Below, piece after piece: positions 1,049 to 37,695 of a stretch of DNA of 55,220 bases. The stretch lies in the NCBI GenBank assembly GCA_964462785.1, contig CAYWZA010000005.1:1-55220 (forward strand), read 5' to 3'. The position numbers and the translations under genes were made by a program. Position 1 is the first letter of the stretch; each line of letters opens with the position of its first letter. The notes under the pieces were generated by a model, which saw only the letters and a list, made by a program, of their open reading frames with translations, ran no database searches and was not told the origin of the DNA. The DNA is from an uncultured Candidatus Saccharibacteria bacterium. GTDB taxonomy: Bacteria; Patescibacteriota; Minisyncoccia; Phycocordibacterales; UBA2100.

Positions 1049-1206
1049 AGGGTATTCACCCCAGAGCAAGCTCTGGACTCATTTTGAACTCGCTATGCTC
1101 GTGCATATTCCGCAGCAAGCTGCGGGGTATCATACCCTGTATTGCGTCTTCGCTCGGAGAAAATGCAAAGCTACGCATTGCATTTTGCCCCTCGCTAGCC
1201 GCAATA
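1049..1206. repeat. Composite REP-like palindromic element(s)
   Basis: Outer IR agggtat/ataccct (1049-1138) enclosing hairpins ccagagcaagctctgg and ccgcagcaagctgcgg; second unit tattgcg...cgcaata (1140-1206) with internal aaaatgca/tgcatttt stem. Confidence 0.65.
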
Positions 1207-1283
1207 GAGTGGGCTCTGATTGACAAAAGTGGTGCGTGGGCGAATGATCACTACTAGATTGTTTCCTTTGGGAGGAAGACGTC

Positions 1284-2117: not shown

Positions 2118-2121
2118 TAGT

Positions 2122-2150
2122 ATGCCGCTCGCTTCGCGAGCGGCATTTTC
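2122..2150 (+). terminator. Intrinsic terminator after phhA
   Basis: atgccgctcgc-ttc-gcgagcggcat hairpin followed by T run. Confidence 0.75.
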
Positions 2151-2252
2151 ATTGCATATACATGCTTCTTCTGTACGGTGAACATATTGTGCACATCGAC
2201 GGTCAACGGATGATATGCGAACATATCAGAATATTCATTAGCACGTACGCCT

Positions 2253-3140: not shown

Positions 3141-3164
3141 ATAATCCACGCATATAAAACATAC

Positions 3165-3536
3165 ATGAAGCGTCACGTGCAGACATCGATATTGCTCGCT
3201 CTTCTTGCGGCAGGAATTGTGCTCACCGCGGTTGTTGCCCTGACTGCAATGCGCGCGTATCTGTGGGGGCAGGAACAGCACTATTTTGGAGAGGTTATTC
3301 GAATGACTGATAGCGGTGTTGTCATATCAGATCCGTTATTGGGCGAGCGTTTTGTCATTATCGATGCAACGACGGTGATACGCAGAGGTCGAGACAGTGC
3401 GCAGCGTCTGCAGGTTGGTGATCGCCTGATTGTATTCAGTACGGACGAGGAAATTGCAGTCCACGCAACATTTATTCGCGTAGTGAGCGACGGCAAACAG
3501 CTTCCATTACCGTTGCAACAGCGCCTCAAGCAGTAG
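3165..3536 (+). CDS. Hypothetical membrane-anchored protein with small beta-barrel-like domain
   Basis: N-terminal hydrophobic helix, LQVGDRLIV-type OB-like pattern; operon context. Confidence 0.6.
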   Translation: MKRHVQTSILLALLAAGIVLTAVVALTAMRAYLWGQEQHYFGEVIRMTDSGVVISDPLLGERFVIIDATTVIRRGRDSAQRLQVGDRLIVFSTDEEIAVHATFIRVVSDGKQLPLPLQQRLKQ

Positions 3537-4128: not shown

Positions 4129-5646
4129 CTATTCCACCGTATACGTGAACATCATGCCCGCTTCGATGTGCTCGAGGATGTGACAGTGCGCCATCCATAC
4201 GCCTAGGTTAGAGGGATCGAGAAGGATGTCGACTGTTTCGCCGGCTTTGATTAATGTTGTGTCTTTCCAAACGAGATTGGTCTCTTTCACGCCATCACGC
4301 TCAAGCACGAGGAATCTGTTGCCGTGGAAATGGATCGGGTGCTGCATTGGATGCATTGATTTCGGATCATTGAAGATCCGAATCTTTACTGGCTCGTCGC
4401 GCTTGAGTGCCCAGTTGATATCCATGTCTATCTTCCCTGTATCCTGATCGACGATGTGCCACTTCGTCGAATCGGCAGTAGTATTTGCATTCATCATCGC
4501 GTGCGAGTCTTCCCACTCGATGCCACCCGCAGGCGCACCCATCATGCCGCCCATGCTACCCATGTTCATACCACCCATGCCTCCCATTCCCATCATGTCG
4601 ATCGTGAGCGTAAGACGCTTATCAGGCGCTTTGTCGAAGTATTGCCTAAACGAATCGATACTTGCCTTGGTCGCCTGATGTTCCGGAATGTCAGCGAACG
4701 CTTCCGCATACGAGGGCAGAGCCGCCTCGCTCTCGATCGCGATCGAGCCGAGTGCCGTCATGCCAGACGGCGTATCGTTTACGATGGTTGTTGGCGACTG
4801 GATCAAGACATCGACGATCGCACGCTCGGAAGGTCCAAGAAGAACGCTATCCACCCATTGCGCTTTTTCATACGCGCCGTTGTCGCCGCCGACGAGCTTC
4901 ATCCTTGTCCCCTTGATCGCAAAATTGAACGGGCGCGTATTCGCCGCGTTCGTAAGATAGAGGCGCACAACTTCTCCCTTCTTCGCCCGGAGGACGAAAT
5001 TCTCTTGCCCGTTCACAAGCATCACATTGCCGAAACGACCCATGAGCACGTGATCAGTGCCGGTCTTGCTCAGATTGAGTTTGCCACCCTCAATGAGGAT
5101 ATCGTCGAGAAACAAGGCGACTTCCCTGTTGACTGGCGTCCAGTACGATTCGTCTGCAGGGATGACAATGAAATTTCCATAAAGCCCCATTTCCTGTGCG
5201 TACGCATCATGCACGTGCGGGTGGTACCAATATGCACCAGCGTCGGGGAACTTAAGTTTGTACGTAAAGCTCTCACCAGGCTCCATCTCTTTCTGTGTCA
5301 CCTGTGAGCCATCGAAAGCGTTATCCATGCGCACGCCGTGCGAATGCAGGAGCGTCTTGATGTCGGTCGCGTTCGTGAAGTTGATCGTGATTTCCGCACC
5401 TTGTGGAACTTTGATCAGTGGTCCTGGGATGGAGCCGTTGTATGCGAGCATCGTATGTGCGCGACCAGCGATCGTCTTCTGCACCTCATCCATGACGAGA
5501 TCGTAGGAATCACCATTTTTCAACTCAACGACGGTGCTTTCTTCGGCGGTGGTCAACTGTGCAGTGTTCGTGCGCGTGTCCGTGTACGCTCCGTAAACAG
5601 CGATGGTAAAGAAGAGCGCCGCGCCTATCAGTACTTTTTTGTTCAT
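4129..5646 (-). CDS. Multicopper oxidase (CueO/CopA-like), exported
   Basis: HSHG, YWYHPH, HPIHFHG, HCHILEHIEAGM copper motifs; Met/Gly-rich insert. Confidence 0.93.
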   Translation of the reverse strand: MNKKVLIGAALFFTIAVYGAYTDTRTNTAQLTTAEESTVVELKNGDSYDLVMDEVQKTIAGRAHTMLAYNGSIPGPLIKVPQGAEITINFTNATDIKTLLHSHGVRMDNAFDGSQVTQKEMEPGESFTYKLKFPDAGAYWYHPHVHDAYAQEMGLYGNFIVIPADESYWTPVNREVALFLDDILIEGGKLNLSKTGTDHVLMGRFGNVMLVNGQENFVLRAKKGEVVRLYLTNAANTRPFNFAIKGTRMKLVGGDNGAYEKAQWVDSVLLGPSERAIVDVLIQSPTTIVNDTPSGMTALGSIAIESEAALPSYAEAFADIPEHQATKASIDSFRQYFDKAPDKRLTLTIDMMGMGGMGGMNMGSMGGMMGAPAGGIEWEDSHAMMNANTTADSTKWHIVDQDTGKIDMDINWALKRDEPVKIRIFNDPKSMHPMQHPIHFHGNRFLVLERDGVKETNLVWKDTTLIKAGETVDILLDPSNLGVWMAHCHILEHIEAGMMFTYTVE

Positions 5647-5889
5647 ATAGTCTATTTAATCATGGATTTTGCAAATGCCGCCATTGCGGGGAGTACTTCG
5701 CATCATGATTTCATCATGTTGGGCATATAGCGTAGGCTGCGCGTCATCGGACATGATGCATATGGTTTCTTACCTCGATAGCAATGCATATCGAGCGAAG
5801 TTGGGTGCACACCGCTGCGGTGGCAATCGCACTGAGCGTATACCACATGCCGAAACGCCATACATGCTATGCATGCATCAATTTTTCAT

Positions 5890-7962
5890 ATGAAGCGGCG
5901 GGCAATTCTCACGATCGTGGGGATATATGTCGCATACTTGTTAACAGGGCTTGTCGGTTTACAGCTCTATAGCGCAACGCTTAATGTGCGACCAATTCTC
6001 ATATGGCTGCCGCTCGGGATTAGCGTTGCCGCCGTATTGCTGGAAGGATATATCGCCCTCATACCAATTGCGCTTGGTGCAATAACCATCGCCATTATTA
6101 ACAGTGTGCAGCCGCTTCCCCTTGCTGCTGCCACCGTTGTGGCGCACGTTGCGCAGGCGTATGTATTTGGGTTTATATTTCGCACGCTGCACGCGCATCC
6201 TCGTCTTGAGACGCTGCGCGACATGGCGCTCCTGCTCGCAACAGGTTTTTTTGCGACTGCCGTCTTTCCTTCAATACGATCTGCGGCAATCTATCTATAC
6301 AATGCGCAGTACGGCACGGAAATTCCAATCACGTGGACAACGTGGTGGGTTGGCAATGCGCTCAGCGTGCTCATTATTGTGCCGCTCCTGCTCGGCGTAT
6401 ATGCGCGAGCGCATCGGCTGTGGCGACGCCCCCGACTGCAGAATCTTGAACTGATTATTGCGCTCGTGCTACTTTCCGGCGTGTCGGTATTTCTTTTTGG
6501 AACATTGACCACCGCAGTGGGGGGTATTTCGCTCTTGTTCCCCTTACTGGTCATGCTGACATGGATATCGCTACGCTTCGGTGTGATCCCTACCGGCATC
6601 GGGCTGCTGCTCATGACCGCAATTTCGATCGGCGGAGCTCTCATTGGCACCTACGTCATGCCTCTCGGCGGTATACACCAGCGTCTGCTTAATGTGCAGA
6701 TATTCGATCTGATCATGGTGGTGTTCTTTCTTATTTTGGCGTCGGTGGAGGAACAGCGCAGAATTTCTCTCGCAGAGCAGGTGCAAAACGCGGAGCAACT
6801 TAAAGAGGCGCTTGAAAAGCTCCACAAGCAGGAAGATGCGAAAAATGAGTTCATCGCCATTCTTGCGCACGAGCTGCGCAATCCGCTTGCGCTCATGGAT
6901 AACTCAATGCAATTACTGCGCATCGAGACGAAAGATCACGTCGAAAATACGAAGCTCATCGACACCATGCTCAAACGCGTCCACACAATGGCGCGTTTGC
7001 TTGATGATCTTTTGGACATATCACGCATCACACAAAATAAAATCACCATTAAAAGCGAGGTCATCGACATGCGTGGCATCGCTCAGCACGCTATCGAAAA
7101 TATGAGATCCGTTGTAGCAAACCGGATGCAAACACTGCAAGGCACGGTGCCGTCGTACCCACTATGGGTGCGCGGCGACCCAACACGCCTTGAGCAGGTC
7201 ATGCTCAATCTGCTCATAAACGCTGCAAAATACACGCCTGACGGAGGGCGTATTGTTTTCACGCTTGCCAAAAGTGACGGATATATCGTCATTCGTGTTG
7301 CGGATAACGGTATTGGCATTCCATCCGACATGCTCACGCAAGTGTTTGAACCGTTTGTGCAAATTAGCCGTCCATACAAAATGCCGGGCGTTTCCGCCAG
7401 CCTCGGCGTCGGTCTTTCCGTCACTAAAAGGCTCGTCGAACTGCATGGCGGATCCATTGAAGCACAGAGCGCAGGATTGAATCAGGGCAGCGAATTCACA
7501 ATACGCCTACCTGTACACGAGCACAGTCACGATGAATCGAAACTGCCGAGACAAGCCGCAGAGAATCGCGAACAACAACAACAAAAACTGTCGCATGTCC
7601 GCACATTCGATATTCTTGTCGTTGACGATGAGTCGGCAATCGCGGACGGCTTCAAAAAATTGCTTGAGCAGGTCGGCGGACACACAGTGCGCGTTGCATA
7701 CAACGGGAAAGATGCGATCCAGCGCATGAAAGAACATGCGGCTGATGTTGTCATATTGGATATCGGCTTACCGGATATGGATGGATATACGGTTGCGCGC
7801 GCCCTTAAAAAGGAACGTGAACCGACGTTTCTCATTGCGCTCAGCGGATATGGTCAGGAGAAAGACAAGGAAAAAGCGCGTCAAGCCGGCTTTGATGAAT
7901 ATCTGGTAAAACCTGCGGGCATTGCTGCCGTTGAACGCATTCTGAGCACCATACCCAGTTAA
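5890..7962 (+). CDS. Hybrid sensor histidine kinase (MASE1-like membrane domain, HisKA, HATPase, receiver)
   Basis: ~9 TMs with WLPLG/WWVGN; AHELRNPL H-box; NLLINAAKY, DNGIG, GVGL boxes; VVDD...LDIGLP...KP receiver. Confidence 0.9.
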   Translation: MKRRAILTIVGIYVAYLLTGLVGLQLYSATLNVRPILIWLPLGISVAAVLLEGYIALIPIALGAITIAIINSVQPLPLAAATVVAHVAQAYVFGFIFRTLHAHPRLETLRDMALLLATGFFATAVFPSIRSAAIYLYNAQYGTEIPITWTTWWVGNALSVLIIVPLLLGVYARAHRLWRRPRLQNLELIIALVLLSGVSVFLFGTLTTAVGGISLLFPLLVMLTWISLRFGVIPTGIGLLLMTAISIGGALIGTYVMPLGGIHQRLLNVQIFDLIMVVFFLILASVEEQRRISLAEQVQNAEQLKEALEKLHKQEDAKNEFIAILAHELRNPLALMDNSMQLLRIETKDHVENTKLIDTMLKRVHTMARLLDDLLDISRITQNKITIKSEVIDMRGIAQHAIENMRSVVANRMQTLQGTVPSYPLWVRGDPTRLEQVMLNLLINAAKYTPDGGRIVFTLAKSDGYIVIRVADNGIGIPSDMLTQVFEPFVQISRPYKMPGVSASLGVGLSVTKRLVELHGGSIEAQSAGLNQGSEFTIRLPVHEHSHDESKLPRQAAENREQQQQKLSHVRTFDILVVDDESAIADGFKKLLEQVGGHTVRVAYNGKDAIQRMKEHAADVVILDIGLPDMDGYTVARALKKEREPTFLIALSGYGQEKDKEKARQAGFDEYLVKPAGIAAVERILSTIPS

Positions 7963-7968
7963 CCTGTC

Positions 7969-8925
7969 ATGAAAAAAGGTCACACCATCCGTTCATATCG
8001 TACACTCGTTAAGCGGCGGTTGAACAGATTGCGACCAATTCTTTCGAGAGTGGCGCACGGTGATTTTTCACACAACGTGCGTGTAGATACGCACGAAGAT
8101 GATTTCAAAAGTATATATGCCGGTATACAACTCATGATCAAGTCTGTTCGTGATACGATAGCTCACTTGAACAAACGGAATACCAACCTCAAGCAAAAAG
8201 TTCGCACGCTGCGGAGTGAGGTGTTGGAGCGTAAGAAGATGGAGCTCAACAAAAATGAATTTATAGCATTTCTCGGGCACGAGCTGCGCAACCCGCTTGC
8301 GTCCGTCCTGTATGCTGCGCAATTAATCAGGCTACAGATGCGAGCAGGTACGCTCGAGCATGTCGAAGAGGAAGTGCGCGTTATCGAGCACCAAAGCGAA
8401 CACATGGCACGGTTAATTCAAGATCTGACTGATGTTTCCCGCATTGCACGCGGCAAAATCGAATTGGAACGCCAGCCTATCGATCTCAAGGAAACGCTTC
8501 ACCGAGCCATACAAACCATGGAGCCGCATATAGCCGAAAAAAACCACCATTTTAGTGCCGTATTGCCGGAACAAACACTCCGCGCATTTGCCGATCCAAT
8601 GCGCATTGAACAAATCGTTACCAACTTGTTAGGCAATGCGATCCGATACACCGAGGCTGGCGGGATCATCGAGCTTACACTCGACACCATCGACAGCATG
8701 GCGCGCATTCGGGTCAAAGATAACGGGCAGGGTATTTCATCAAGATCGCTCAAGAAAATTTTTGATGTTTTCTTCCAGGTTAATGCGCAGGAGCACGGGT
8801 TAGGCATGGGGCTTGCGATCGCGCGCGGTCTTGCGCGCATGCACGGTGGCGATGTTGTTGCCTCGAGTGGCGGAATCGGCAAGGGGAGTGAATTTGTGTG
8901 CACGATTCCTTTGCTCAAATCCTGA
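7969..8925 (+). CDS. Cytoplasmic histidine kinase with N-terminal HAMP-like region
   Basis: GHELRNPL, NLLGNAIRY, DNGQG, GLGMGL; no TM segment. Confidence 0.88.
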   Translation: MKKGHTIRSYRTLVKRRLNRLRPILSRVAHGDFSHNVRVDTHEDDFKSIYAGIQLMIKSVRDTIAHLNKRNTNLKQKVRTLRSEVLERKKMELNKNEFIAFLGHELRNPLASVLYAAQLIRLQMRAGTLEHVEEEVRVIEHQSEHMARLIQDLTDVSRIARGKIELERQPIDLKETLHRAIQTMEPHIAEKNHHFSAVLPEQTLRAFADPMRIEQIVTNLLGNAIRYTEAGGIIELTLDTIDSMARIRVKDNGQGISSRSLKKIFDVFFQVNAQEHGLGMGLAIARGLARMHGGDVVASSGGIGKGSEFVCTIPLLKS

Positions 8926-9075: not shown

Positions 9076-10425
9076 ATGACAAAATCAACTACAACGCTCG
9101 AAAATAAAAAACGCTCTGCTTCGGACATCCAGAAACAGGCTGCGAAGAAACATGAAGTAGTTGCCGTTGTGGGGCTTGGATATGTAGGCTTGCCACTTGC
9201 CATTACTGCAGAATCGCGCGGGTACAAGCTCGTCGGATTCGACATAGACGCACAAAAAGTTGAGAAATTGCAAAAGCGTGATGCTCCATTTCTATCAGAA
9301 GCAGAGGAGCGTGCCTTTGCTGAAAGCCGCATGCACATCACCACACGCGAGGAGTCGCTTGCAGAGGCAGACATCATCGTCATATGCGTACCAACTCCCG
9401 TATCAGAAGATGCTCATGTGCCTGATCTCAGCCCACTACGCAACGCATGCGTGCTCGTCGCGCGCAACCTCAAGAAAGGGGCGTTGGTTATCGTGGAGTC
9501 CACAGTTAATCCCGGCGCCTGCGAGAGCGTTGCTATTCCAGTCATTGAATCCGTATCGCAATTCCATGCCGGCAGAGACTTTCTATTCGCCCACTGTCCT
9601 GAGCGCATTAATCCGGGAGATCCACTTTATACCGTGGCAAATATTCCTCGCGTGATTGGCGGCATCGATACCCCGAGCGTCGAGCGCGCCGAGGCATTTT
9701 ATCGCTCGGTTGTTTCTGCAAGCGTCGTACGCATGAGCTCAATCAAAGAAGCCGAAGCGGTGAAGATGGTCGAGAATGCATTTCGTGACATTAATATCGC
9801 GTTTGTAAATGAGCTGGCAATGTCGTTCGACAAAGCGGGTATTGATATTGTGAACGTCATTCGCGGGGCAACAACAAAACCATTTGGCTTCCTTCCCCAC
9901 TATCCCGGCTGTGGCGTCGGCGGCCACTGCATACCCGTCGATCCGTATTACCTGATCTCATACGGCAAGGAGAACGGCTTTACCCATCGATTTCTCATGA
10001 CGGCCCGCGAGATTAACAACAACATGCCACACTACACGCTCAAAATACTTTCGCGCCTACTCCGCGAGCGCGGCAAAAAACTGCGTGGCGCAAAGGTGGC
10101 ATTGCTCGGCTTATCGTACAAGCGTGATATTGGGGATACACGTGAAAGCCCCGCGTTGATTATCCGCGATGAGCTCATGTCTCGTGGTGCATCGCTGCGC
10201 AGTTTTGACCCGCATGTTCCAAAAGAGTCGACCGTTGAGAGCTTGGAGGATGCTTTGAGTGGGGCTGACGCGCTTGTCATAGCAACCGACCACAGCATCT
10301 TTCGATCTATCGTCCCGAGTACGTTGCTTAAGAATGGGGTCGGCGTGGTCGTCGATGGGCGCAATTGTCTACAAAAGGAGTTATTCGTTTCAGAAGGCAT
10401 TAGCTATCACGGTATCGGTCGGTAG
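9076..10425 (+). CDS. Nucleotide-sugar 6-dehydrogenase, WbpA/WecC/TviB type (UDP-N-acetylhexosamine dehydrogenase)
   Basis: GLGYVG, CVPTP, ESTVNPG, PERINPG, KMVENAFRDINIA, GVGGHCIPVDP, YKRDIGDTRESP. Confidence 0.9.
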   Translation: MTKSTTTLENKKRSASDIQKQAAKKHEVVAVVGLGYVGLPLAITAESRGYKLVGFDIDAQKVEKLQKRDAPFLSEAEERAFAESRMHITTREESLAEADIIVICVPTPVSEDAHVPDLSPLRNACVLVARNLKKGALVIVESTVNPGACESVAIPVIESVSQFHAGRDFLFAHCPERINPGDPLYTVANIPRVIGGIDTPSVERAEAFYRSVVSASVVRMSSIKEAEAVKMVENAFRDINIAFVNELAMSFDKAGIDIVNVIRGATTKPFGFLPHYPGCGVGGHCIPVDPYYLISYGKENGFTHRFLMTAREINNNMPHYTLKILSRLLRERGKKLRGAKVALLGLSYKRDIGDTRESPALIIRDELMSRGASLRSFDPHVPKESTVESLEDALSGADALVIATDHSIFRSIVPSTLLKNGVGVVVDGRNCLQKELFVSEGISYHGIGR

Positions 10426-10443
10426 GTAGCATTAATTGGAGCT

Positions 10444-11736
10444 ATGTTCGTATACGCACCACAAAAGTTGGAAGAAATGAGGAAATCGTTCAACGATGCC
10501 GGTGCTGTGTTTTTCTTTTTTTTTGTCCTGTACGTCATATTCGTGCTCAAGGTGATCACGTATAAATCGATCTATGACAGCGTCTTCTTGGGTGTGTACT
10601 CGATGCTCATCACCGTCTACATACTCTCCCGTTTCCTGCTCTCCTACCTACACATGCCAATAGCAATTGATCCGTCGTATGAGCCGACCATCGCATTTGT
10701 CGTGCCGGCAAAAAATGAGGAGGACAATATTTACAAAACTCTGCAGCGCTTTGCGCAGGTAGAATATCCGCGCCACAAAATCGAAGTCATTGCCATCAAC
10801 GACGGCTCAACCGATAACACCTACGCGGAAATGCAGCGCGCGGCAGACGATATCGCACCGGCGATACAGCGCGTCGAGGTAGTCAATTGGACAGAAAATC
10901 GTGGCAAGCGCCATGGCATGGCAGAGGGCGTAAAGCGCGCGCGCAATGACATTGTAATTTTCGTCGACTCAGATAGTTTCATTGAGCCAAATGCGGTACG
11001 GCACCTGGTTAAATACTTCGCCGATCCAGACATTGGCGCAGTGTCCGGTCACACCGACGTGGAAAATCGCACGACAAATCTTTTGACCGAAATGCAGGCT
11101 ATCCGCTACTATATCGCCTTCACGATATATAAAGCTGCAGAGTCCGCATTCGGCATGGTGACCTGCTGCCCGGGGTGCTGCAGCGCGTATCGCCGCACCT
11201 ATCTACTCGAATTTATTGACAAATGGCTGAACCAAACATTCCTCGGGGGAACCTGTACGTTCGGTGACGATAGATCACTCACGAATTTTATCATCCAAAA
11301 GTATCGCGCCGTGTACTCATACGAGGCGCGCGCGACAACCGTCGTACCGGATACGATGGGTAAATATGTCGTCCAGCAGCAACGGTGGAAAAAATCGTGG
11401 ATACGGGAAACATTTATTGCGGCGAGTTTTGTGTGGACGCGAAATCCCGTTGCCGCTGTTTCTTTCTACACATACATGTTTTTGGCATTTGCCTCCCCCA
11501 TTGTTTTCTTCCGCGCCATGGTGTGGCTTCCCGTAACTGATAGTGCGTGGCCGATCATTTATTTGATGGGTTTGTTTCTCATGTTGTTCCTGCATGGGTT
11601 GTATTACCGGATTCGAGTCGGTCAGCGCGCGTGGTTTCTCGCTATCGTAAACTTCTGGCTTAATACCGTTCTCCTGATGTGGCAGTTGCCGTGGGCGCTG
11701 CTCACCATTCGCGACTCGAGGTGGGGTACCCGGTAG
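10444..11736 (+). CDS. Processive membrane GT2, hyaluronan synthase (class I HasA)/NodC-like
   Basis: 2 N-terminal TMs, DGSTD, DSD, FGDDRSLTN, QQQRWKKSWIRE, 3 C-terminal TMs; 430 aa. Confidence 0.85.
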   Translation: MFVYAPQKLEEMRKSFNDAGAVFFFFFVLYVIFVLKVITYKSIYDSVFLGVYSMLITVYILSRFLLSYLHMPIAIDPSYEPTIAFVVPAKNEEDNIYKTLQRFAQVEYPRHKIEVIAINDGSTDNTYAEMQRAADDIAPAIQRVEVVNWTENRGKRHGMAEGVKRARNDIVIFVDSDSFIEPNAVRHLVKYFADPDIGAVSGHTDVENRTTNLLTEMQAIRYYIAFTIYKAAESAFGMVTCCPGCCSAYRRTYLLEFIDKWLNQTFLGGTCTFGDDRSLTNFIIQKYRAVYSYEARATTVVPDTMGKYVVQQQRWKKSWIRETFIAASFVWTRNPVAAVSFYTYMFLAFASPIVFFRAMVWLPVTDSAWPIIYLMGLFLMLFLHGLYYRIRVGQRAWFLAIVNFWLNTVLLMWQLPWALLTIRDSRWGTR

Positions 11737-11746
11737 CAAAATCATT

Positions 11747-13345
11747 ATGCATTACATGGTGTTGACGAAAGGCAAGATGTTGTTTCTCATACTCGTTGCT
11801 CTCATGCTGCTCATCACGGTCACGGCAACATTTGTATATAAAGACTCCCGCTATGGCATCGATAACCTGCCAAACATAGTGAGTCGTGTGGTGCGGCAAC
11901 ACTCTGCCGAACTATATTACCGTGTATCGTTTGCCGCGCGCGACAAGACCGGGTCGTTGCCGGAATATTTTGGTCTCAGTGACCGTGTTATAGACGAAGA
12001 ACGGGATGCGCGTGCGGTGCCTGTCTTGGTATATCACGGCATAGCGGACAAGGGTGGTGATTACACCATCTCACAGGCCACGTTTGCCGAGCACATGTTT
12101 ACACTGCATCAGGCCGGATGGAAAACGATTTCATCCGCAGCATTGGAACAGTTCTTGCGCGGAACCGCTACGGTTCCCGAGCGTTCTTTTTTACTGACGT
12201 TTGATGATGGTGCAAAAAGCAGCTTTTATCCGGTTGATCCGGTTCTGTCTGCGCTTGGTGTGCACGCACTCACATTCATATTGCCAAAGTATTCCCTCAA
12301 TAACGGCACCCATTATTATCTTTCGCTGGGAGAATTAAACTCAATGCTTGCCAACGGACGGTGGGAAATAGGCTCACACAGCCAAGAAGGTCATCAGCTC
12401 TTTCCTGCGGATGCGGCAGGTGCCATGACGCCGGCGCTGGGACGCCCATTGTGGCTACTGAATGAAGAGCGTCTGGAAACCCAACAAGAGTACGAGAAGC
12501 GTATCGAGGCAGATCTGCGGATCTCGCGCCACAATCTAGAGCAGGCACTGGGCATTCCCATCACATCATTTGCGTTCCCTTTCGGAGAATTCGGACAGCT
12601 CAACGACAGCTTCCCTGCGGCGATTACCACAGTCGCGCGTATCGCTGGTGATACATACAAGATGTCTTTTTACCAAGTGCGACGCGGGGAGGGATTTACA
12701 TTTAATTATCCAACACCGGAACAAACGGGAATGCTGCTGGTCAGGAGAATCGAGCCACATCCCGAAACGACAGCACACGAATTACTTGAGCACCTAGAGA
12801 ATGGATTACCGAAAGACATACCGTTTGTTGAAGACTTCTCAGCAGAACAGGGGTGGTTTTCAGTGTGGGGACCATACTCATTTACGCTTGGGCAACTCTC
12901 TCTTGCTGCCTCACCCGAAGAAACAGGGAACGCAGTTATTTTGGACGGAACGCGAGACTGGCGTGACTATACCGTTCGCATGCGTGTGCATTCGCCATCA
13001 CGCACCGGCATCTATCTCTGGGTGCGCTTCCAAGGAAGCGAGCAACATGCCGGATGCAACTTTGGCAACGGCTTCATCCACGTTGAAGAGACGATCCTGG
13101 GGGACGCCCGGGTTATACAAGGGCTGCGGACAGATGACATAATCATTCCGGATGGCGATTTCACCATCGAAGCCCGTGTGCAAGGCAGATCCTTAACATG
13201 CACACTGGATGAACGCGCGAGTGCGACATCGGAATTTTTGAATCCGGCGCTGGATACGGGCGGCATAGGTGTAAAAATCTGGTCCCCGGAATCTGGAAGG
13301 GCGCGTTTGATTATAAAAAACATCCATGTGGATTCCGCACCATGA
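11747..13345 (+). CDS. Membrane-anchored polysaccharide deacetylase (PgaB/IcaB-like CE4) with C-terminal beta-sandwich domain
   Basis: VPVLVYHG, LTFDDG, IGSHSQEGH, FAFPFGE motifs; N-terminal TM. Confidence 0.85.
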   Translation: MHYMVLTKGKMLFLILVALMLLITVTATFVYKDSRYGIDNLPNIVSRVVRQHSAELYYRVSFAARDKTGSLPEYFGLSDRVIDEERDARAVPVLVYHGIADKGGDYTISQATFAEHMFTLHQAGWKTISSAALEQFLRGTATVPERSFLLTFDDGAKSSFYPVDPVLSALGVHALTFILPKYSLNNGTHYYLSLGELNSMLANGRWEIGSHSQEGHQLFPADAAGAMTPALGRPLWLLNEERLETQQEYEKRIEADLRISRHNLEQALGIPITSFAFPFGEFGQLNDSFPAAITTVARIAGDTYKMSFYQVRRGEGFTFNYPTPEQTGMLLVRRIEPHPETTAHELLEHLENGLPKDIPFVEDFSAEQGWFSVWGPYSFTLGQLSLAASPEETGNAVILDGTRDWRDYTVRMRVHSPSRTGIYLWVRFQGSEQHAGCNFGNGFIHVEETILGDARVIQGLRTDDIIIPDGDFTIEARVQGRSLTCTLDERASATSEFLNPALDTGGIGVKIWSPESGRARLIIKNIHVDSAP

Positions 13346-14226
13346 ACATCCGTCATCTACCGGTGACAGTGGTGCGGACTCTGATGGTCTGCACGGTCAT
13401 AGGGTTCTTTGTGTGGATGTTCGGGATGTTGCATGGATTCGTGACTGTTGAAAATACTGCTGCATCATTACCTGCGATACACGAAGAAGGCGAACGCTTC
13501 GTGTACACATTTTCCGTTGACGGAATATTGCAGGAGGCGGAAGAGCGTGACACCACAAGCCCCTATTGGTGGCTCAACTCGGGCGGCATGTTTATCATTG
13601 AAAACGGCATTGGGAAAACAATACAGGGGGCGCTCCCCTCGCTGCACCGTTGGCGGCTTGCGTATGCAGCGGACAATCCGACCGATAGTGACGGCGGATA
13701 CCATCCGCAAAATCTCTTTCGCCTCATTTCACGCAACGAGTGGCTTAACCCGAGCACACGCGTGATGTTTCGTATCGCGCACGATAATCTAAGCGCGAGC
13801 CAAAATCGCAACGAATCGAACGGGATATTTATTATCAGCCGCTATGTCAACGGTGACACTTTGTACTACGCAGGCATTCGCGTAGACGGTTCTGCGGTCA
13901 TTAAGAAAAAATACCGGGGGGTGTATTACACACTGGCGCAAGTACCGGTCTTCTCCGGCCCCTACGATCGTGATACGTCGGCAAATCTTTTGCCCCACAG
14001 CGAATGGCTGGAGATGATAGGCGAAACGAAAACGCAGACGGACAATTCAGTGACAATACGATTGCTTCTCAAGCGCGGAGATGCGGAGCCTGTGCTTCTT
14101 GTTGAGGCAGTTGACGCAAGCGGCATATGGGATGGCACCCCTGTCATAGATGCGCGAGCGCGAATCGGCATACGATCTGATTTTATGGATGTGGAATTTA
14201 CATCCATCGAGGTACACGAATTATAA
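13342..14226 (+). CDS. Exported protein of unknown function, jelly-roll/lectin-like; paralog of 15081-15941
   Basis: N-terminal TM; shares SPYWWxNSG, GYHPQNxFRL, YYAGxRxDG, GIRxDFMDVEF with the paralog; ATGA overlap with deacetylase. Confidence 0.75.
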   Translation: MNIRHLPVTVVRTLMVCTVIGFFVWMFGMLHGFVTVENTAASLPAIHEEGERFVYTFSVDGILQEAEERDTTSPYWWLNSGGMFIIENGIGKTIQGALPSLHRWRLAYAADNPTDSDGGYHPQNLFRLISRNEWLNPSTRVMFRIAHDNLSASQNRNESNGIFIISRYVNGDTLYYAGIRVDGSAVIKKKYRGVYYTLAQVPVFSGPYDRDTSANLLPHSEWLEMIGETKTQTDNSVTIRLLLKRGDAEPVLLVEAVDASGIWDGTPVIDARARIGIRSDFMDVEFTSIEVHEL

Positions 14227-14313: not shown

Positions 14314-15015
14314 ATGCAAGAACAAACGCATAGCCTCGATAACCGAATTCACACCGTGCTGTTTTATGCACACATAGTGGTGTGTGCGGTCGTAATCAGC
14401 ATCTCTGCTTTCCTATTACTGAAAGCCGAAAGCGCTGATGCGGCGGCGTTTACCCGCAGTCTTGAAATGGGCATGAGCGGCAACGACGTGTCGGCACTCC
14501 AGACATATCTTGCGATGGATCCGAGTATATATCCGGAGGGGCTGGTGACGGGTTATTTCGGATCGCTCACACAAGCCGCTGTCATGCGCTTTCAGGCAAG
14601 CCGCAGCATTGATCAGGCGGGACGCGTTGGTCCAATTACCCGCGCTGCACTGAACGCAATCCCTGCGGTCGCGGCACTGCCCATGGATGGCGCGCTTGGG
14701 ACCGGCGGTTCGGATGATGTATCGGCTCCCATTATGAGCACGTCAACTGTCGTTGCGGCAACAAACACCGCAGTCATATCATGGAATACCAATGAACCGG
14801 CATGGCATCGAGTCATGTATGGGACCATTTGGCCATTCCTCTATGCGACGGCAGCTAAGGCATCCGATGTAGCGTTTGATGCAAACGGATCCGTCTTGCT
14901 CAGCAATCTGCTGCCCAATACACTCTATTATTACGTCCGCGAATCGGAGGACGTAGCGGGCAATGTCATGTGGGATACTGCCGCATCGTTCCGCACAGCA
15001 ACTAACACGCCGTAG
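14314..15015 (+). CDS. Exported peptidoglycan-binding (PG_binding_1-like) protein with FN3-like C-terminal domain
   Basis: LEMGMSGNDVSALQTYL...TGYFGSLTQAAVMRFQ...GRVGPITRAALN; ISWNTNEP...LLPNTLYYY. Confidence 0.82.
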   Translation: MQEQTHSLDNRIHTVLFYAHIVVCAVVISISAFLLLKAESADAAAFTRSLEMGMSGNDVSALQTYLAMDPSIYPEGLVTGYFGSLTQAAVMRFQASRSIDQAGRVGPITRAALNAIPAVAALPMDGALGTGGSDDVSAPIMSTSTVVAATNTAVISWNTNEPAWHRVMYGTIWPFLYATAAKASDVAFDANGSVLLSNLLPNTLYYYVRESEDVAGNVMWDTAASFRTATNTP

Positions 15016-15034: not shown

Positions 15035-15068
15035 GCAAAAAACCACCGCCAACCGGTGGTTTTTTTGC
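15035..15068. terminator. Bidirectional intrinsic terminator
   Basis: aaaaaaccaccg-ccaac-cggtggttttttt between convergent genes. Confidence 0.85.
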
Positions 15069-15080: not shown

Positions 15081-15941
15081 TTACAGATCACGAACGCGGA
15101 AGTTGTCGAATTCAACGTCCATGAAGTCAGTGCGAATACCCGATGAACCGCTTTTGATAGGAGCACCGCCGGTGCCCGTATCCTTTACGGAGAGAATCGA
15201 TGCGTAGGTGCCGTCGTTCTCTTTATCAAGCAGGAGCTGCAATGACACAGAGCCGTCGGCGTTGTTTTTTGCCTCAAGTTTCATACCCATCCATGTGTTG
15301 ACTGGCAACAGCGATGGATTGCTTGTCCGATTGTATGAGCCCTTGGTGCCGAACGCCTGACCCGATGCAAGCGTGTAGTAAGTGCCTCCAATTTTTTTCT
15401 TAATGGTGGCTCCGCCGTCGCTGCGAACACCGGCATAGTAGAGATTACTTCCATCCTTGTAGCGAGCGAAGAAGAGCACGCCATTGTAGCCGTCGCGGTT
15501 CGGGCTGCTGCTGAAGTTGTTGCGCGTGATCCGGAAACTCATCTCGTGCATCGCACTTCCCCACGTCTGCTTACTGACGAGACGGAAGATGTTTTGCGGA
15601 TGATAGCCGTTATCCGTATCGAGCGGGTTCGTCTGCGCGTACAACTTGCGCCAATAATCGTTTGCGGGGAGTTCCCGCTGGACGGTCATGCCGAGACCAT
15701 CCTTCACAATCAATTTTGCCCCCGAGTTTACCCACCAATATGGACTTGGGCTTTCAGCCATTGACCCCGCTTCTTGGAGTACGCCAGGGACATTGAAGGT
15801 GAACAAATAATGACCGGGCACTGCTGCTGCGGATGCGGGCAGCGGGACCACAATCGCGAATGCGACAAGTGCCGCAATCAGGCCGAGTGTTGATCCTATC
15901 GGAGCCGCAATACGCACGGCGTGTGTAGTAGCTTTTTTCAT
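15081..15941 (-). CDS. Secreted protein of unknown function, jelly-roll/lectin-like; paralog of 13342-14226
   Basis: Signal peptide (...PASA), shared motif blocks, C-terminal VEFDNFRV; start taken at MKKATT. Confidence 0.75.
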   Translation of the reverse strand: MKKATTHAVRIAAPIGSTLGLIAALVAFAIVVPLPASAAAVPGHYLFTFNVPGVLQEAGSMAESPSPYWWVNSGAKLIVKDGLGMTVQRELPANDYWRKLYAQTNPLDTDNGYHPQNIFRLVSKQTWGSAMHEMSFRITRNNFSSSPNRDGYNGVLFFARYKDGSNLYYAGVRSDGGATIKKKIGGTYYTLASGQAFGTKGSYNRTSNPSLLPVNTWMGMKLEAKNNADGSVSLQLLLDKENDGTYASILSVKDTGTGGAPIKSGSSGIRTDFMDVEFDNFRVRDL

Positions 15942-16195
15942 AGCGAATATTTTTAACGAGTAACGGAAGTGGCGCGCACGAAAGCACAACATGAGAACAG
16001 ACCAGTACGTGAAAACATCGTGAACGAAACTTCCGACGGCTCATTATACGGAGTGAGATTGTAAGTCAACGAAATTATGAAGACGATATGTACGCTTCTT
16101 CATGAACAATGCATGTTTTCTTTAAAAATATAGACGCGCATATATGAAGAAAACGCGCTGTGGGATTTTTAAAACCATCTGTCAATGCACAGTAT

Positions 16196-16320
16196 GTGAG
16201 TCTTGTGAACATTGATGCAATGCGAGAAGCGGGCGAGCACCGAACCGAGACGTATTGAATATACGGCGAGGGAGGAGCGAAGCCCGCGACAAAGCAGTGC
16301 GCAATGTTCACAAAACTCAC
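16196..16320. mobile_element. 125-bp MITE/REP-like palindromic element
   Basis: 19-bp terminal IR gtgagtcttgtgaacattg / caatgttcacaaaactcac (1 mismatch) with internal gcgggc/gcccgc and cgtat/atacg stems; no coding capacity. Confidence 0.65.
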
Positions 16321-16394
16321 GTGAAATGTTCAGCATTGCTTCATGCACGTTTGCTTACAATGCGATCAGCATTAAAAAAATAATTTTTACAGGT

Positions 16395-17621
16395 ATGAAC
16401 ACCACAGTGTTGGATCGCGGGATGCGCATGATGATTTTTTTACTGGTATGCATATGCGCACTCGGTGCATATCCAGCCGAAACGCGAGCCCAGGTCAATC
16501 TGGTCCCGAACGGCTCGCTGGAATCCGCTGATAGCTCCGGTGTACTGCCTGTCAGTTGGCGCAAGGGAGGCTATGGAAGCAATACCCGCTCGCTCACCTA
16601 TCCCGTCCCTGGAGTCGGAGGTGGCAAAGCGGTGAAAACCGCCATTACAAGCTATGTAAGCGGCGATGCGAAATGGTTCTTCAATCCGATTTCCCTCTCG
16701 CCGGGCTTGTACACATATTCTGATGACTACATGTCGGACCGGGCGAGTATTGTTACGGTGCAATTTGAGCGCACTGATGGCACGTTTGCATATATCGACA
16801 TTGCAACACTACAGCCATCCGCAACATTCCAATCGATATCTGTTGATTTCAGCGTGCCCGCAAACACCGCAAACGTCACTATCTTTCATCTCATAAAGGG
16901 GGTTGGGTTCGTCACCGTGGATAACGTAGCTGTACGATTTAAGGAATCGCCATCCGGCATATTCAGCACTGGCGCAGTGACATTACGTTTCGATGATGGC
17001 TGGCTCTCCCAATATGAAAACGCGCTGCCAAAACTCAACAGCACGGGACTTAAGGGGACATTCTACATTGTCACGCGCCAAATGGCGGAACAAGGATTTC
17101 CCGGATACATAAACCAAACCCAGCTGCGTAACATATACACTGCAGGCAATGAAATAGCCGCGCATACGCGCACGCATCGCGATTTAACCACACTGAGCTC
17201 GTCCGTACAGCAAAGTGAAATACAGGGATCGCGACAAGATCTGATCGGCTGGAATGTGGGTTCCATTCTTTCGTTTGCCGTTCCATTCGGTTCATATAAT
17301 CAGTCCCTCATCACGATGATACAAAATGCCGGCTTTACCAGCATGGTAACGGCAAACGGGGGTCTAAATCTGGAAACAGCCGATGCCTTCCAGCTTGCGC
17401 GAGTTTCTGCAGACACACGAAATTCTCTGGCGCAACTGAAGCAAGCAGTCGACAGCGCCGCAGCAAACAAACAATGGCTCATCATAACCTTCCATGAAAT
17501 CAATACGAGCGGGAGAACCTACAGCATCACCCCAGCCAATTTCAATGCCATCATCGATTACATCGTCCAAAAAGGCATTCCGGTCGTGACTGTTTCTGAA
17601 GGCGTACAGTTCTTGCGGTAA
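16395..17621 (+). CDS. Secreted polysaccharide deacetylase (NodB/CE4) with N-terminal carbohydrate-binding-module-like domain
   Basis: Signal peptide, NLVPNGSLE CBM-like start, LRFDDGW, AHTRTH, FAVPFG, IITFHE. Confidence 0.85.
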   Translation: MNTTVLDRGMRMMIFLLVCICALGAYPAETRAQVNLVPNGSLESADSSGVLPVSWRKGGYGSNTRSLTYPVPGVGGGKAVKTAITSYVSGDAKWFFNPISLSPGLYTYSDDYMSDRASIVTVQFERTDGTFAYIDIATLQPSATFQSISVDFSVPANTANVTIFHLIKGVGFVTVDNVAVRFKESPSGIFSTGAVTLRFDDGWLSQYENALPKLNSTGLKGTFYIVTRQMAEQGFPGYINQTQLRNIYTAGNEIAAHTRTHRDLTTLSSSVQQSEIQGSRQDLIGWNVGSILSFAVPFGSYNQSLITMIQNAGFTSMVTANGGLNLETADAFQLARVSADTRNSLAQLKQAVDSAAANKQWLIITFHEINTSGRTYSITPANFNAIIDYIVQKGIPVVTVSEGVQFLR

Positions 17622-17995
17622 TCTCGGAAATGTTTTTGAAGCGAGGCAGATGCTGTTCAAGTAAATTCCACATGTGGTGAATGTACTCGAACACACGATT
17701 CACAACAGACTAATTCTCGGGTGTCGTTCATGTGCTTCTTAGACAGTTTCTGACATGTGTCATTCACGTGCGCGTCATGCCAAAACGTAGCGTGCGTGAA
17801 AATTTCACACTAACTCCATTTTTGTCGCATACAGTGCGAGCACACATCGGTCGATATGGAGCGTGTGCTCTATGAGCGTGTCGATTACTACTTTTAGCGC
17901 GGGTGCAGGCCGAAGCTCTTCAATGCGGTTACGCGATCGCGCATGGGGATCACCAATCCTCGTTATCATCAAAATCAAAAAAACAGAATAACTTT

Positions 17996-24404: not shown

Positions 24405-24415
24405 TTCTCGTCTGA

Positions 24416-24455
24416 CCTCATGTGCACTTTAAGATTACTTTATCTTTTCTTTAAG
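24416..24455 (+). promoter_or_regulatory. Candidate tandem operator (3-4 half sites)
   Basis: cctcatg/ctttaag/ctttatc/ctttaag at 24416, 24427, 24438, 24449 (11-bp period). Confidence 0.45.
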
Positions 24456-25266: not shown

Positions 25267-25273
25267 TATTTGT

Positions 25274-35989: not shown

Positions 35990-37695
<1,706 letters not shown>

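Follow-up and report, generated by a model that had tools for sequence, protein, structure and literature searches.

Four co-directional genes in a 55,220-nucleotide stretch of DNA (the window) from an uncultured Candidatus Saccharibacteria bacterium form a conserved operon, which encodes, from 5' to 3' on the + strand, a UDP-HexNAc-type dehydrogenase (DH), a GT2 synthase, a CE4 deacetylase and a ConA-like protein. Its hallmark is a three-gene core of synthase, deacetylase and ConA-like protein that recurs across candidate-phyla (Patescibacteria) genomes and to which the DH is a facultative addition. The core most likely produces a GlcNAc-based, partly de-N-acetylated polymer; in the DH-carrying genomes, including this one, the polymer may also hold GlcNAcA. 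Taken as a whole, a surface polymer of this kind with optional, DH-dependent GlcNAcA is an explanation to which we give an even chance.

The first three genes (9076-13345) had been singled out in an initial annotation as a hybrid of hyaluronan- and PNAG-type operons; they are indeed grouped and co-directional, and all five motifs quoted there are present. Their family assignments lie well outside what chance would produce. Gaps of 18 nt and 10 nt separate DH from synthase and synthase from deacetylase. The end coordinate 13345 leaves out the fourth gene, which starts at 13342 and shares its first 4 nt with the end of the deacetylase gene.

Gene identities in the operon

The DH (449 aa; 9076..10425, + strand) is a nucleotide-sugar 6-dehydrogenase with a TIGR03026 score of 405 bits (cut-off 189.8). 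Its translation contains GLGYVG (33-38), PERINPG (175-181) and GVGGHCIPVDP (280-290), including the GxGxxG and catalytic-Cys (GGHC) motifs. Models of UDP-ManNAc/UDP-GlcNAc dehydrogenases give 234-330 bits overall (UDP-ManNAc DH 330 and 247, TviB 234), whereas UDP-glucose DH models give 48-178 bits; likewise, solved UDP-HexNAc-class enzymes reach 209-277 bits (PDB 4r16 277, Cap5O 246) and UDP-glucose DHs at most 147. By sequence, the DH is thus of the HexNAc type and not of the HasB/Ugd type, as had been proposed. A full UDP-glucose-type dehydrogenase (244 vs. 98 bits) lies elsewhere in the same genome, at C1:29621-31027, in a different glycan cluster.

The DH reaches no equivalog cut-off, and its top-scoring models are UDP-ManNAc dehydrogenases. 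A WecB epimerase over cut-off was found neither in this genome nor in three of the five other DH-carrying genomes; because in four of the six no WecB was found, UDP-GlcNAc is the likelier substrate, and conversion of UDP-GlcNAc to UDP-GlcNAcA the most likely reaction. The genome has GlmS and MurA and thus uses UDP-GlcNAc. A search of the 95.8%-complete genome for a sugar-1-phosphate nucleotidylyltransferase (GalU, GlmU, any NTP_transferase) found none, which leaves the precursor supply unexplained and counts against the preferred explanation.

The synthase (430 aa; 10444..11736, + strand) is a class I HAS/NodC/chitin-synthase-like processive GT2 synthase-translocase, with Pfam matches to Glycos_transf_2 (2e-29) and Chitin_synth_2 (5e-23). 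Among NCBIfam models NodC scores best (185 bits, cut-off 550), and the PgaC/IcaA model gives 122 bits (cut-off 422). The motifs DGSTD (120-124), NRGKR (152-156), DSDS (175-178), GDDRSLTN (274-281), QQQRWKKSW (311-319) and the C-terminal WGTR (427-430) are of the HAS variant, as initially annotated; a rhizobial NodC (443 aa) instead has GEDRHLT, QQLRWARS and WLSR, and is 27.5-28% identical. Among solved structures the synthase comes closest to Xenopus HAS1 (119.5 bits) and chlorovirus HAS (111), with chitin synthases at 25.5-32. By hydropathy, it has two hydrophobic segments at the N-terminus and two to three at the C-terminus, consistent with the topology of small class I HAS-like enzymes. In chlorovirus HAS, as described in part of PMC12987647, Lys177 and the Arg of QxxRW sandwich the GlcA carboxylate. 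Both residues align with K155 and R314 of the synthase; the equivalent Lys and Arg also occur in NodC, and the pair is therefore non-discriminating.

The deacetylase (532 aa; 11747..13345, + strand) combines a PgaB/IcaB-type CE4 de-N-acetylase with a C-terminal ConA/CBM66-like beta-sandwich behind a single N-terminal hydrophobic anchor. It matches Polysacc_deac_1 (Pfam, 2e-13) and the PgaB model (1e-29). The AF2 model (pLDDT 91.2) retrieves PgaB in Foldseek (2.8e-20), with a TM-score of 0.80 for the A. actinomycetemcomitans and E. coli PgaB N-domains, as well as IcaB and BpsB, so that the PgaB/IcaB-like assignment is borne out by sequence and fold. The C-terminal part resembles CBM66 (TM 0.73), and Foldseek aligned no hydrolase domain to it. 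Among 50 orthologs TFDDG (151-155) is invariant, and within HSQEGH (211-216) H211 is conserved at 90% or more and H216 at 60-90%; with its PgaB-like fold and conserved Asp/His residues, the enzyme looks active, and it is presumably located outside the membrane. PNAG with its beta-1,6 linkage, and not a beta-1,4 chain, is the known substrate of PgaB-type deacetylases, which counts against the preferred explanation.

The fourth gene (13342..14226, + strand) encodes a membrane-anchored ConA-like (DUF1080/3-keto-disaccharide-hydrolase-like) protein with no Pfam or NCBIfam match. Its AF2 model (pLDDT 92.9) matches CBM66 (Z 16.4), YesU-like 1oq1 (15.9), DUF1080 3hbk (13.0) and GH16 enzymes (~13); lectins, CBMs and GH16/DUF1080 enzymes thus score alike. 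In the ESM Atlas, the nearest named clusters consist of 3-keto-disaccharide hydrolase domain proteins (0.97), and 26 residues are invariant among 43 homologs. The protein is a putative glycan-binding or glycan-trimming partner.

Conservation of the core and its surroundings

Among the matches listed, at least 120 database proteins are 65-81% identical to the synthase. The deacetylase follows the synthase in 49 of 51 loci, and in 41 of 45 it is itself followed by the ConA-like gene; of 10 further synthase loci, sampled evenly over classes, 8 had the same core. The DH adjoins the synthase, upstream, in 33 of 45 loci and is absent in the remaining 12 (11 if a divergent HexNAc-type DH at L044 is counted). 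A DH ortholog elsewhere in the genome was found in none of the five genomes without DH at the synthase locus, and of 13 further synthase-positive genomes 8 yielded none anywhere, among these 8 genomes 98% and 100% complete. DH-less synthases are scattered over about six places in the synthase tree, beside DH-carrying sisters, in one case with 100% support, and no changes in the catalytic motifs track the loss of the DH. The initial annotation had paired the DH with the synthase; by the GT2 phylogeny and the repeated absences, the DH is facultative, thus an optional add-on and not an obligate HasB-like partner. In genome G205 a DH ortholog is found on a separate contig, where its neighbour is another GT2, and the DH family therefore also serves other glycans. 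An independent pair of DH and HAS-like GT2 occurs in a Gram-positive-type phage fragment.

Two histidine kinase genes precede the operon: a hybrid sensor kinase and candidate operon regulator (5869..7962, + strand; Pfam MASE1, HisKA, HATPase_c and receiver) and a second kinase (7969..8925, + strand; HisKA, HATPase_c), with 150 nt between it and the DH. Of 40 related loci with sufficient upstream DNA, 16 have a histidine kinase no more than 2.5 kb ahead of the cassette, and the neighbouring two-component genes may regulate the operon. Downstream, a membrane-anchored peptidoglycan-binding and FN3-like protein (14314..15015, + strand; PG_binding_1, Pur_ac_phosph_N) is possibly encoded by the last gene of the transcription unit; a homolog was seen close to the cassette in just 2 of 56 loci, so it belongs to the local context and not to the core. 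A terminator-like hairpin with a T-run (15045..15066, + strand), a consensus match from a pattern scan, stands after this last + strand gene. A convergent ConA-like paralog (15081..15992, - strand) is 39% identical to the fourth operon protein, aligns with it and its homologs, and matches the same places in related loci. Further on lies a second CE4 deacetylase (16212..17621, + strand), HfsH/NodB-like with an N-terminal extra domain (Polysacc_deac_1 1.8e-21, HfsH model 2.8e-28); 8 of 56 loci carry, in the vicinity of the cassette, a homolog aligned over most of the protein, and another 2 a short partial match.

Comparison with known systems

The trio is not without precedent: clusters with the same functions occur in fungi and chloroviruses. 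Published descriptions, in parts of PMC4059230, PMC5122149 and PMC7053769, combine a predicted UDP-GlcNAc 6-dehydrogenase (UNGD), a chitin/hyaluronan-synthase-related (CHS-like) GT2 and a polysaccharide deacetylase: Wangiella CHSL-UNGD, Trichoderma chs8-cda1-UNGD and the chloroviruses; the GT2 of these clusters is termed class VIII, ‘CV’ or ‘chitin/hyaluronan synthase’. Their authors likewise infer that the DH feeds the synthase, and these parts do not identify the product either. Those clusters are eukaryotic or viral; peculiar to the bacterial cassette are the PgaB-type CE4-ConA fusion, the membrane-anchored DUF1080-like protein and a DH confined to part of the family. No description of the bacterial operon was found in the literature searched. 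Of the original interpretation, then, the motifs, the DH type, the deacetylase and the operon stand, whereas a DH as fixed partner and a trio without precedent are not supported.

Class I HAS operons (streptococcal hasABC, Bacillus pXO1 hasACB, CvHAS) share a small membrane-integrated GT2 with GDDRxLTN, QQxRWxKS and WGT(R) and a nucleotide-sugar 6-dehydrogenase before or after it; the synthase is 36% identical to a plasmid hasA over 59% of the query. Unlike in these operons, the DH here is HexNAc-type and dispensable in relatives, a deacetylase is nearly always present, and hasC/GalU was not found in the genome. The PNAG systems (PgaABCD, IcaADBC) also pair a GT2 synthase with an extracytoplasmic CE4 de-N-acetylase of PgaB/IcaB fold, and their partly deacetylated GlcNAc polymer serves as the model for the chemistry of the cassette; however, the synthase scores lower on PgaC/IcaA than on NodC, the cassette deacetylase ends in a ConA-like sandwich, and PNAG loci are not known to have a dehydrogenase. 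In rhizobial NodBC, too, a CE4 deacetylase adjoins a GT2 that matches the synthase in superfamily and size, but NodB is a small soluble enzyme, in contrast to the anchored, PgaB-like protein here.

The closest homolog of the synthase in a cultured organism is a plasmid GT2 of Paenibacillus cellulositrophicus (WP_152403772.1, 39.6% identity over 89%), followed by a homolog of the deacetylase-ConA protein (E 5e-19). There, in contrast, the synthase is extended at its N-terminus by a stretch that weakly matches PilZ (27 bits), the deacetylase homolog is without the DD and His motifs and any Pfam match, and a GH18 chitinase-family gene and a tandem CE4 gene are present and a dehydrogenase absent. 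By analogy, this neighbourhood suggests a GlcNAc-type backbone. The GH18 link rests on one distant relative.

The probable product

Substrates, linkage and co-incorporation of GlcNAcA are all inferred, and the alternatives differ mainly in what becomes of the DH product. The synthase might take only UDP-GlcNAc everywhere, giving a plain chitin/chitosan-like polymer that the deacetylases turn partly into GlcN, with the DH product going to a different glycan or glycoconjugate. The DH-less loci and genomes, the constant catalytic residues, the Paenibacillus neighbourhood and the G205 ortholog all favour this; the DH, where present, is nevertheless almost always immediately upstream and co-directional, and its pairing with such a synthase recurs independently in the phage fragment and, by the partial accounts cited above, in fungi and algal viruses, which makes this reading rather unlikely. 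At the other extreme, as the initial annotation had it in its strong form, DH-carrying genomes could make a regular acidic glycosaminoglycan, either alternating GlcNAc-GlcNAcA in hyaluronan style or a GlcNAcA homopolymer. The HAS-variant motifs, the solved HAS relatives, the carboxylate-site residues and the tight DH-synthase spacing speak for it. NodC shares those residues, near-identical synthases occur in genomes without any DH, and obligate alternation is incompatible with the acid donor being lost repeatedly; we consider it distinctly unlikely. A strictly alternating copolymer is thus improbable as the family product, as the DH is no fixed partner; a GlcNAc backbone into which HexNAcA can optionally enter is the better fit. 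What the DH-less relatives demonstrate is that the synthase does not need uronic acid; they say nothing of its use when available.

Short secreted or lipid-linked chito-oligosaccharides, made for NodC-like signalling or priming, would agree with the best NCBIfam model and the size of the synthase; given a score far under the NodC cut-off, the low identity, the HAS-variant motifs, the absence of NodA/NodI/NodJ-type neighbours in a Pfam search, and anchored partners whose large non-membrane domains fit an exported chain, such a product is highly improbable. Ordinary hyaluronan, with UDP-GlcA from the dehydrogenase on contig C1, would suit a HAS-like synthase, but it would leave the near-universal deacetylase without a role; moreover, that dehydrogenase belongs to another cluster, the conserved partner is not HasB-type and GalU was not found, so that this product would be very surprising.

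The polymer with optional GlcNAcA could arise in the following manner in a monoderm, ultra-small Patescibacteria bacterium with a synthase-dependent surface-polysaccharide system: the GT2 would polymerise UDP-GlcNAc at the inner membrane face and thread the chain outward through a transmembrane channel of its own. On the outer side, the anchored CE4 enzyme would strip some N-acetyl groups, leaving GlcN, while the ConA-like domain of this enzyme, together with the ConA/DUF1080-like protein on a separate anchor, may hold, sort or trim the chain. Where the DH is present, UDP-GlcNAcA would be accepted by the synthase as a second donor, and its incorporation would render the polymer acidic and, after deacetylation, zwitterionic.

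Gene order and genomic setting

The cassette comprises four forward-strand genes: a nucleotide-sugar dehydrogenase of 449 aa (9076-10425), a GT2 synthase of 430 aa that starts 18 nt after it (10444-11736), a CE4 protein of 532 aa 10 nt further on (11747-13345) and a 294-aa ConA-like protein without a family match, whose gene overlaps the CE4 gene by 4 nt (13342-14226). Two histidine kinases are encoded upstream: a MASE1 hybrid (5869-7962, +) and, separated from the dehydrogenase gene by a 150-nt gap, a second kinase (7969-8925, +). Downstream, a gene whose 233-aa product contains a peptidoglycan-binding domain (14314-15015, +) begins 87 nt after the 294-aa gene and is followed by a terminator-like hairpin (15045-15066), a convergent paralog of the 294-aa protein (15081-15992) and a second CE4 gene (16212-17621). 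A promoter scan returned 8 sites as compared to a shuffle mean of 12.8, i.e., fewer than the shuffles, and zero sites in the 150-nt gap 5' of the dehydrogenase gene.

The window corresponds to contig C5 of the source genome, which measures 983 kb in 39 contigs and is 95.8% complete; the nearest relatives of the window's genes carry the labels Kaiserbacteria, Paceibacterota or Parcubacteria. Three two-component systems lie inside 22 kb of the window (5869-8925, 22038-23703 and 23724-27292); one of their kinases is the MASE1 hybrid and another has a 7TM sensor region. Among these systems are encoded a 450-aa protein without a family match (17903-19255) and an 838-aa DUF11 surface-repeat protein (19372-21888). 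Energy genes are abundant for a candidate-phyla bacterium (4129-5646, 35990-42877 and 44895-52000, all on the reverse strand): their products are a multicopper oxidase with three domains, subunits of an F-type ATP synthase and a membrane complex resembling complex I or a group-4 hydrogenase, with fused 30-kDa/49-kDa, 20-kDa and NuoH-like subunits plus two that are antiporter-like. A homolog of biopterin-dependent aromatic amino acid hydroxylases (1284-2117, +; Pfam 1.9e-48) seems unusual in so reduced a genome. Apart from the cassette, contig C1 of the same genome carries a large glycan cluster (C1:5195-46730) with a GDP-mannose dehydratase, a GT11 fucosyltransferase-like gene, several GT1/GT2/GT4 genes, a 954-aa carbamoyltransferase-methyltransferase fusion, an asparagine-synthase-like amidotransferase and an MBOAT plus AlgX-like SGNH pair (O-acetylation); it also houses a UDP-glucose-type dehydrogenase.

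Predicted functions of the cassette enzymes

The dehydrogenase has three Pfam domains and the GLGYVG and GGHC motifs and scores above the cut-off of the nucleotide-sugar dehydrogenase model TIGR03026 (405.3 bits). Two independent rankings agree with the initial annotation that it is of the HexNAc type: NCBIfam models for UDP-ManNAc dehydrogenase (330 and 247 bits) and TviB (234) exceed the UDP-glucose-type models (48-178 bits), and among solved structures 4r16 (277), Cap5O (246), 3g79 (224) and CalS8 (209) exceed the UDP-glucose-type enzymes (at most 147 bits). The second full-length dehydrogenase of the genome (C1:29621-31027), within the large separate glycan cluster, ranks in reverse (AglM 244 and TuaD 193 versus 98 bits for UDP-ManNAc dehydrogenase), which indicates that the distinction is real and not an artefact of the models. 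Whereas the partner in HAS operons is a UDP-glucose 6-dehydrogenase (HasB) that provides UDP-GlcA, the cassette thus encodes a HexNAc-type partner.

The dehydrogenase reaches no equivalog cut-off, and its top model is an archaeal UDP-ManNAc enzyme. Supply of UDP-ManNAc requires a UDP-GlcNAc 2-epimerase; WecB over the cut-off is absent from the source genome and present in two of five other dehydrogenase-carrying genomes (2/6 overall). GlmS and MurA are present in the source genome, implying that UDP-GlcNAc is in use. As WecB is mostly absent and UDP-GlcNAc is in use, conversion of UDP-GlcNAc to UDP-GlcNAcA is favoured as the probable reaction, although the WecB pattern is no proof. The models used detected neither GalU nor GlmU nor any member of the general NTP_transferase family in the 95.8%-complete source genome; since UDP-GlcNAc, which the cell needs, shows the same nucleotidylyltransferase blank, no conclusion was drawn on the availability of UDP-glucose. 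Short UDP-glucose-dehydrogenase-like ORFs (263-322 aa) without the NAD-domain start and without any of the UDP-binding domain recur in the source genome (C1:8735-9526 and 43412-44299, both on the reverse strand) as well as in three further genomes of this group (L069, L070 and L071). One listed match in the source genome has an internal stop, and these ORFs may represent gene decay or a truncated family that is conserved.

All motifs quoted for the cassette in the initial annotation are found in the translations. In the synthase, DSDS (175-178), GDDRSLTN (274-281), QQQRWKKSW (311-319) and WGTR (427-430) make up the HAS catalytic core (DxD, GDD(R), QxxRW and C-terminal WGT(R/S)) when aligned with the motifs of Xenopus HAS1 and chlorovirus HAS; variants of this core also occur in NodC and chitin synthases. 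Class I HAS enzymes are built into the membrane by an N-terminal transmembrane pair and by C-terminal transmembrane/interface helices that make the channel. In the synthase, hydropathy places hydrophobic segments at residues 15-44, 43-67, 336-364 and 367-388, and the C-terminal region aligns to the HAS channel region. The top curated model is NodC (TIGR04242), with 185.2 bits compared to a cut-off of 550, and the PNAG synthase model PgaC/IcaA (TIGR03937) gives 121.8 bits at a cut-off of 422.3; both scores lie outside equivalog membership. Identity to a rhizobial NodC is 27.5-28%. Among solved structures, Xenopus HAS1 (119.5 bits) and chlorovirus HAS (111) score highest, with chitin synthases at 25.5-32 bits. 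Where this NodC has GEDRHLT, QQLRWARS and WLSR, the synthase keeps the HAS variants GDDRxLTN, QQxRWxKSW and WGTR, so the HAS-type character originally attributed to its motifs withstands this alignment.

HAS alternates UDP-GlcNAc and UDP-GlcA, making hyaluronan. In chlorovirus HAS, Lys177 and the Arg of QxxRW hold the GlcA carboxylate, according to the accessible text of PMC12987647. The alignment shows both residues conserved in the synthase, as K155 and R314, and equivalents exist in NodC as well; they would permit an acid donor but do not predict one. An FFFFF stretch of the synthase is encoded by T5-C-T9 (10511-10525); its frame is intact here and relatives keep the phenylalanines, and the nine-T run could be prone to slippage.

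The CE4 protein has a single N-terminal anchor and was modelled at a pLDDT of 91.2. In Foldseek, the nearest folds to its deacetylase domain are PgaB (2.8e-20; isolated PgaB N-domains at TM 0.78-0.80), BpsB and IcaB, while its C-terminal beta-sandwich resembles CBM66. Among 50 orthologs, TFDDG is invariant, H211 is present in 90% or more and H216 in 60-90%, the H-x4-H spacing being presumably that of PgaB. Fold and catalytic residues thus bear out the assignment as a PgaB/IcaB-like deacetylase, with scores below the equivalog cut-offs (TIGR03938, 103.2 versus 321.9 bits; TIGR03933, 26.7 versus 248.35). The 294-aa protein is modelled confidently, with a pLDDT of 92.9, from a 43-sequence alignment as an N-terminal membrane helix followed by a ConA-like jelly roll. 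Its structural matches include CBM66 at Z 16.4, a Bacillus protein of galectin-like fold at 15.9, DUF1080 proteins at 13.0 and GH16 enzymes at ~13, and in the ESM Atlas it lies beside '3-keto-disaccharide hydrolase domain' clusters (0.97); by its model, it is a predicted glycan-binding or glycan-cutting module. A catalytic assignment was rejected: lectins, CBM66, DUF1080, GH16 and PL7/PL14 lyases all score Z 12-16.

Distribution and the variable dehydrogenase

A pattern scan with one genome per species yielded 56 synthase loci, in which neighbours were counted where enough flanking DNA was available. The CE4-ConA gene directly follows the synthase in 49 of 51 loci, a ConA-like gene lies further 3' in 41 of 45, and the dehydrogenase gene directly precedes the synthase in 33 of 45 (34 if the 35%-identical, still HexNAc-type enzyme of locus L044 is included). 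A histidine kinase within 2.5 kb (16/40) or a response regulator within 3.5 kb (17/40) is encoded 5' of the cassette. When the class was sampled evenly, the synthase occurred in 14 of 301 genomes (12 of the 279 of high quality); ten further loci came from this sample, eight with synthase, CE4-ConA and ConA-like genes together, one without the ConA-like gene and one with the synthase alone. Among the 120 database homologs listed, the synthase is 65-81% identical across named groups. The cassette is therefore patchily distributed yet strongly conserved. Candidate-phyla bacteria have tiny genomes with few glycan genes; the patchy spread together with the high synthase identity suggests a surface trait that is under selection and can be exchanged. 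Copies with synthases 44-72% identical to that of the window are found on contigs binned as Woesearchaeota (DPANN archaea; L022, L042 and L049), Gammaproteobacteria (L047) and Actinomycetota (L044 and L050); either these contigs are mis-binned or the cassette has moved between ultra-small bacteria and archaea.

The dehydrogenase is the variable component. In none of five genomes with a dehydrogenase-less locus was an ortholog found elsewhere, the only matches being of 21-40 bits to ORFs of ~300 aa. In 13 further synthase-positive genomes, an ortholog was found in five, at 50-57% identity (four adjoining the synthase, one on another contig beside a different GT2), and was missing in eight, including genomes of 98% and 100% completeness. 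The ortholog on another contig (L084, contig C1 of genome G205, 5563-7179) has 50% identity, and the different GT2 next to it is 23% identical over a short stretch. In a quick maximum-likelihood tree of 50 synthases, whose placement of the long-branched L050, L044 and L053 is not reliable, dehydrogenase-less loci appear in about six separate places, and the dehydrogenase-less L020 is the 100%-supported sister of the dehydrogenase-carrying L026. At the catalytic-motif positions, synthases with and without the dehydrogenase do not differ. A search for residues tracking the dehydrogenase led only to a variable loop (134-145) and R165, in sequences that are not independent of each other, and was discarded.

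An obligate, acid-alternating enzyme of the hyaluronan style is unlikely, since it would not tolerate the repeated loss of the dehydrogenase. From gene content, what the family has in common appears to be a chain of the GlcNAc type and its deacetylation. Among cultured organisms, the nearest homolog is encoded on a Paenibacillus plasmid (39.6% identity) and also points in this direction: it adjoins CE4 genes, a CE4-ConA homolog and a gene of the GH18 chitinase family, and it lacks a dehydrogenase. At this locus (L072, P. cellulositrophicus plasmid NZ_CP045296.1, 4550-12180), the synthase homolog is extended at its N-terminus by a region that matches PilZ weakly (27 bits), a hint of possible control by c-di-GMP; it is flanked by a tandem CE4, the GH18 gene and the CE4-ConA homolog, which has lost the catalytic Asp/His motifs. 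Where the dehydrogenase is present, its fixed position, 18 nt 5' of the synthase, suggests that it feeds the synthase, in agreement with published fungal and algal-virus gene pairs and with a tailed-phage fragment that carries, behind its lysis gene, a GT2 with HAS motifs together with a HexNAc-type dehydrogenase.

Related clusters and possible product

In Wangiella and other fungi, a CHS-like GT2 adjoins a predicted UDP-GlcNAc 6-dehydrogenase (UNGD), and a polysaccharide deacetylase is the third cluster gene in one fungal clade and in chloroviruses (PMC4059230; PMC5122149). Trichoderma chs8, which is homologous to hyaluronan synthases too, clusters with UNGD and cda1, the latter being induced together with chs8 during mycoparasitism (PMC7053769). 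The gene content of the cassette fits the description of these clusters, a comparison by description only, and in the accessible portions of the three papers their product is unknown (PMC4059230; PMC5122149; PMC7053769). The trio of HexNAc-type dehydrogenase, HAS-like synthase and deacetylase, initially presented as a novel hybrid of hyaluronan and PNAG operons, hence stands as a trio but not as a novelty, eukaryotic and viral clusters known from genomics being nearer to it. A literature search combining Patescibacteria, Parcubacteria or CPR with hyaluronan or chitin synthase, GT2 and deacetylase found no paper on the bacterial operon, and one for 'N-acetylglucosaminuronic acid' found no synthase-made GlcNAcA polymer.

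Viral contigs yielded no relative when searched with the synthase alignment and one marginal match with the dehydrogenase. A degenerate motif scan found 26 dehydrogenase loci, of which a single one has a HAS-like GT2 alongside, the tailed-phage fragment and not an algal virus; no UNGD-CHSL sequences of the fungal or chloroviral type were found in the scans. The phage pair (L113, viral record G306, 744-3355, reverse strand) consists of a 420-aa HAS/NodC-like GT2 (GDDRCLTN, QQIRWNKSF, WGTR) and then the dehydrogenase, just after the lysis gene, in the company of a tail endopeptidase, a BppU-like baseplate protein and an amidase; it could be a capsule pair of lysogenic conversion.

We infer every substrate and product of the cassette. 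The reading that we prefer, for which the chances are about even, is a synthase-dependent system that would make a GlcNAc-based surface polymer, from which the deacetylase would remove part of the N-acetyl groups; the HexNAc-type dehydrogenase, an optional module, would supply UDP-GlcNAcA to the synthase where it is present. The initial observations are thereby confirmed and their interpretation is supported in part: dehydrogenase and deacetylase do stand beside a HAS-like synthase, but the dehydrogenase, absent in part of the relatives, is not a fixed partner.

The same dehydrogenase-less loci, and the GH18 and CE4 neighbours on the Paenibacillus plasmid, would suit a plain chitin- or chitosan-like polymer with the dehydrogenase serving another glycan; its fixed place before the synthase speaks for its feeding the latter, and we regard this alternative as unlikely. 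Still less probable is a regular acidic glycosaminoglycan in the dehydrogenase-carrying genomes: K155 and R314 could accommodate its donor, and repeated dehydrogenase loss argues against obligate alternation. Short chito-oligosaccharides, to which the top rank of the NodC model might point, appear quite improbable, the NodC score being far below cut-off and the motifs being the HAS variants. Ordinary hyaluronan would accord with those variants but would call for a HasB-type partner in place of the HexNAc-type one, and is scarcely to be expected.

A broader and rather doubtful proposal is that the cassette makes an undescribed chitin-derived glycosaminoglycan with GlcNAc, GlcN and GlcNAcA in one beta-linked chain, its charge tuned by keeping or losing the dehydrogenase and by extra deacetylases. 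Many ultra-small episymbiotic bacteria might be coated with this polymer or use it as a matrix for attachment to their hosts. The cassette, with a synthase in a sister lineage to hyaluronan synthases, might correspond in prokaryotes to the UNGD/CHS-like/deacetylase clusters that fungi and algal viruses carry, and might even have given rise to them. Should the product prove to be a chitin-like polymer of acidic or zwitterionic character, a new member would join the natural glycosaminoglycans, and the HAS/chitin-synthase family would gain a new donor specificity, for UDP-GlcNAcA. Near-identical synthases with and without the dehydrogenase, such as those of L026 and L020, are a natural experiment on donor choice, and the cassette could offer a biochemical handle on the still unexplained chs8-UNGD-cda1 cluster of fungi, with its induction during mycoparasitism (PMC7053769).
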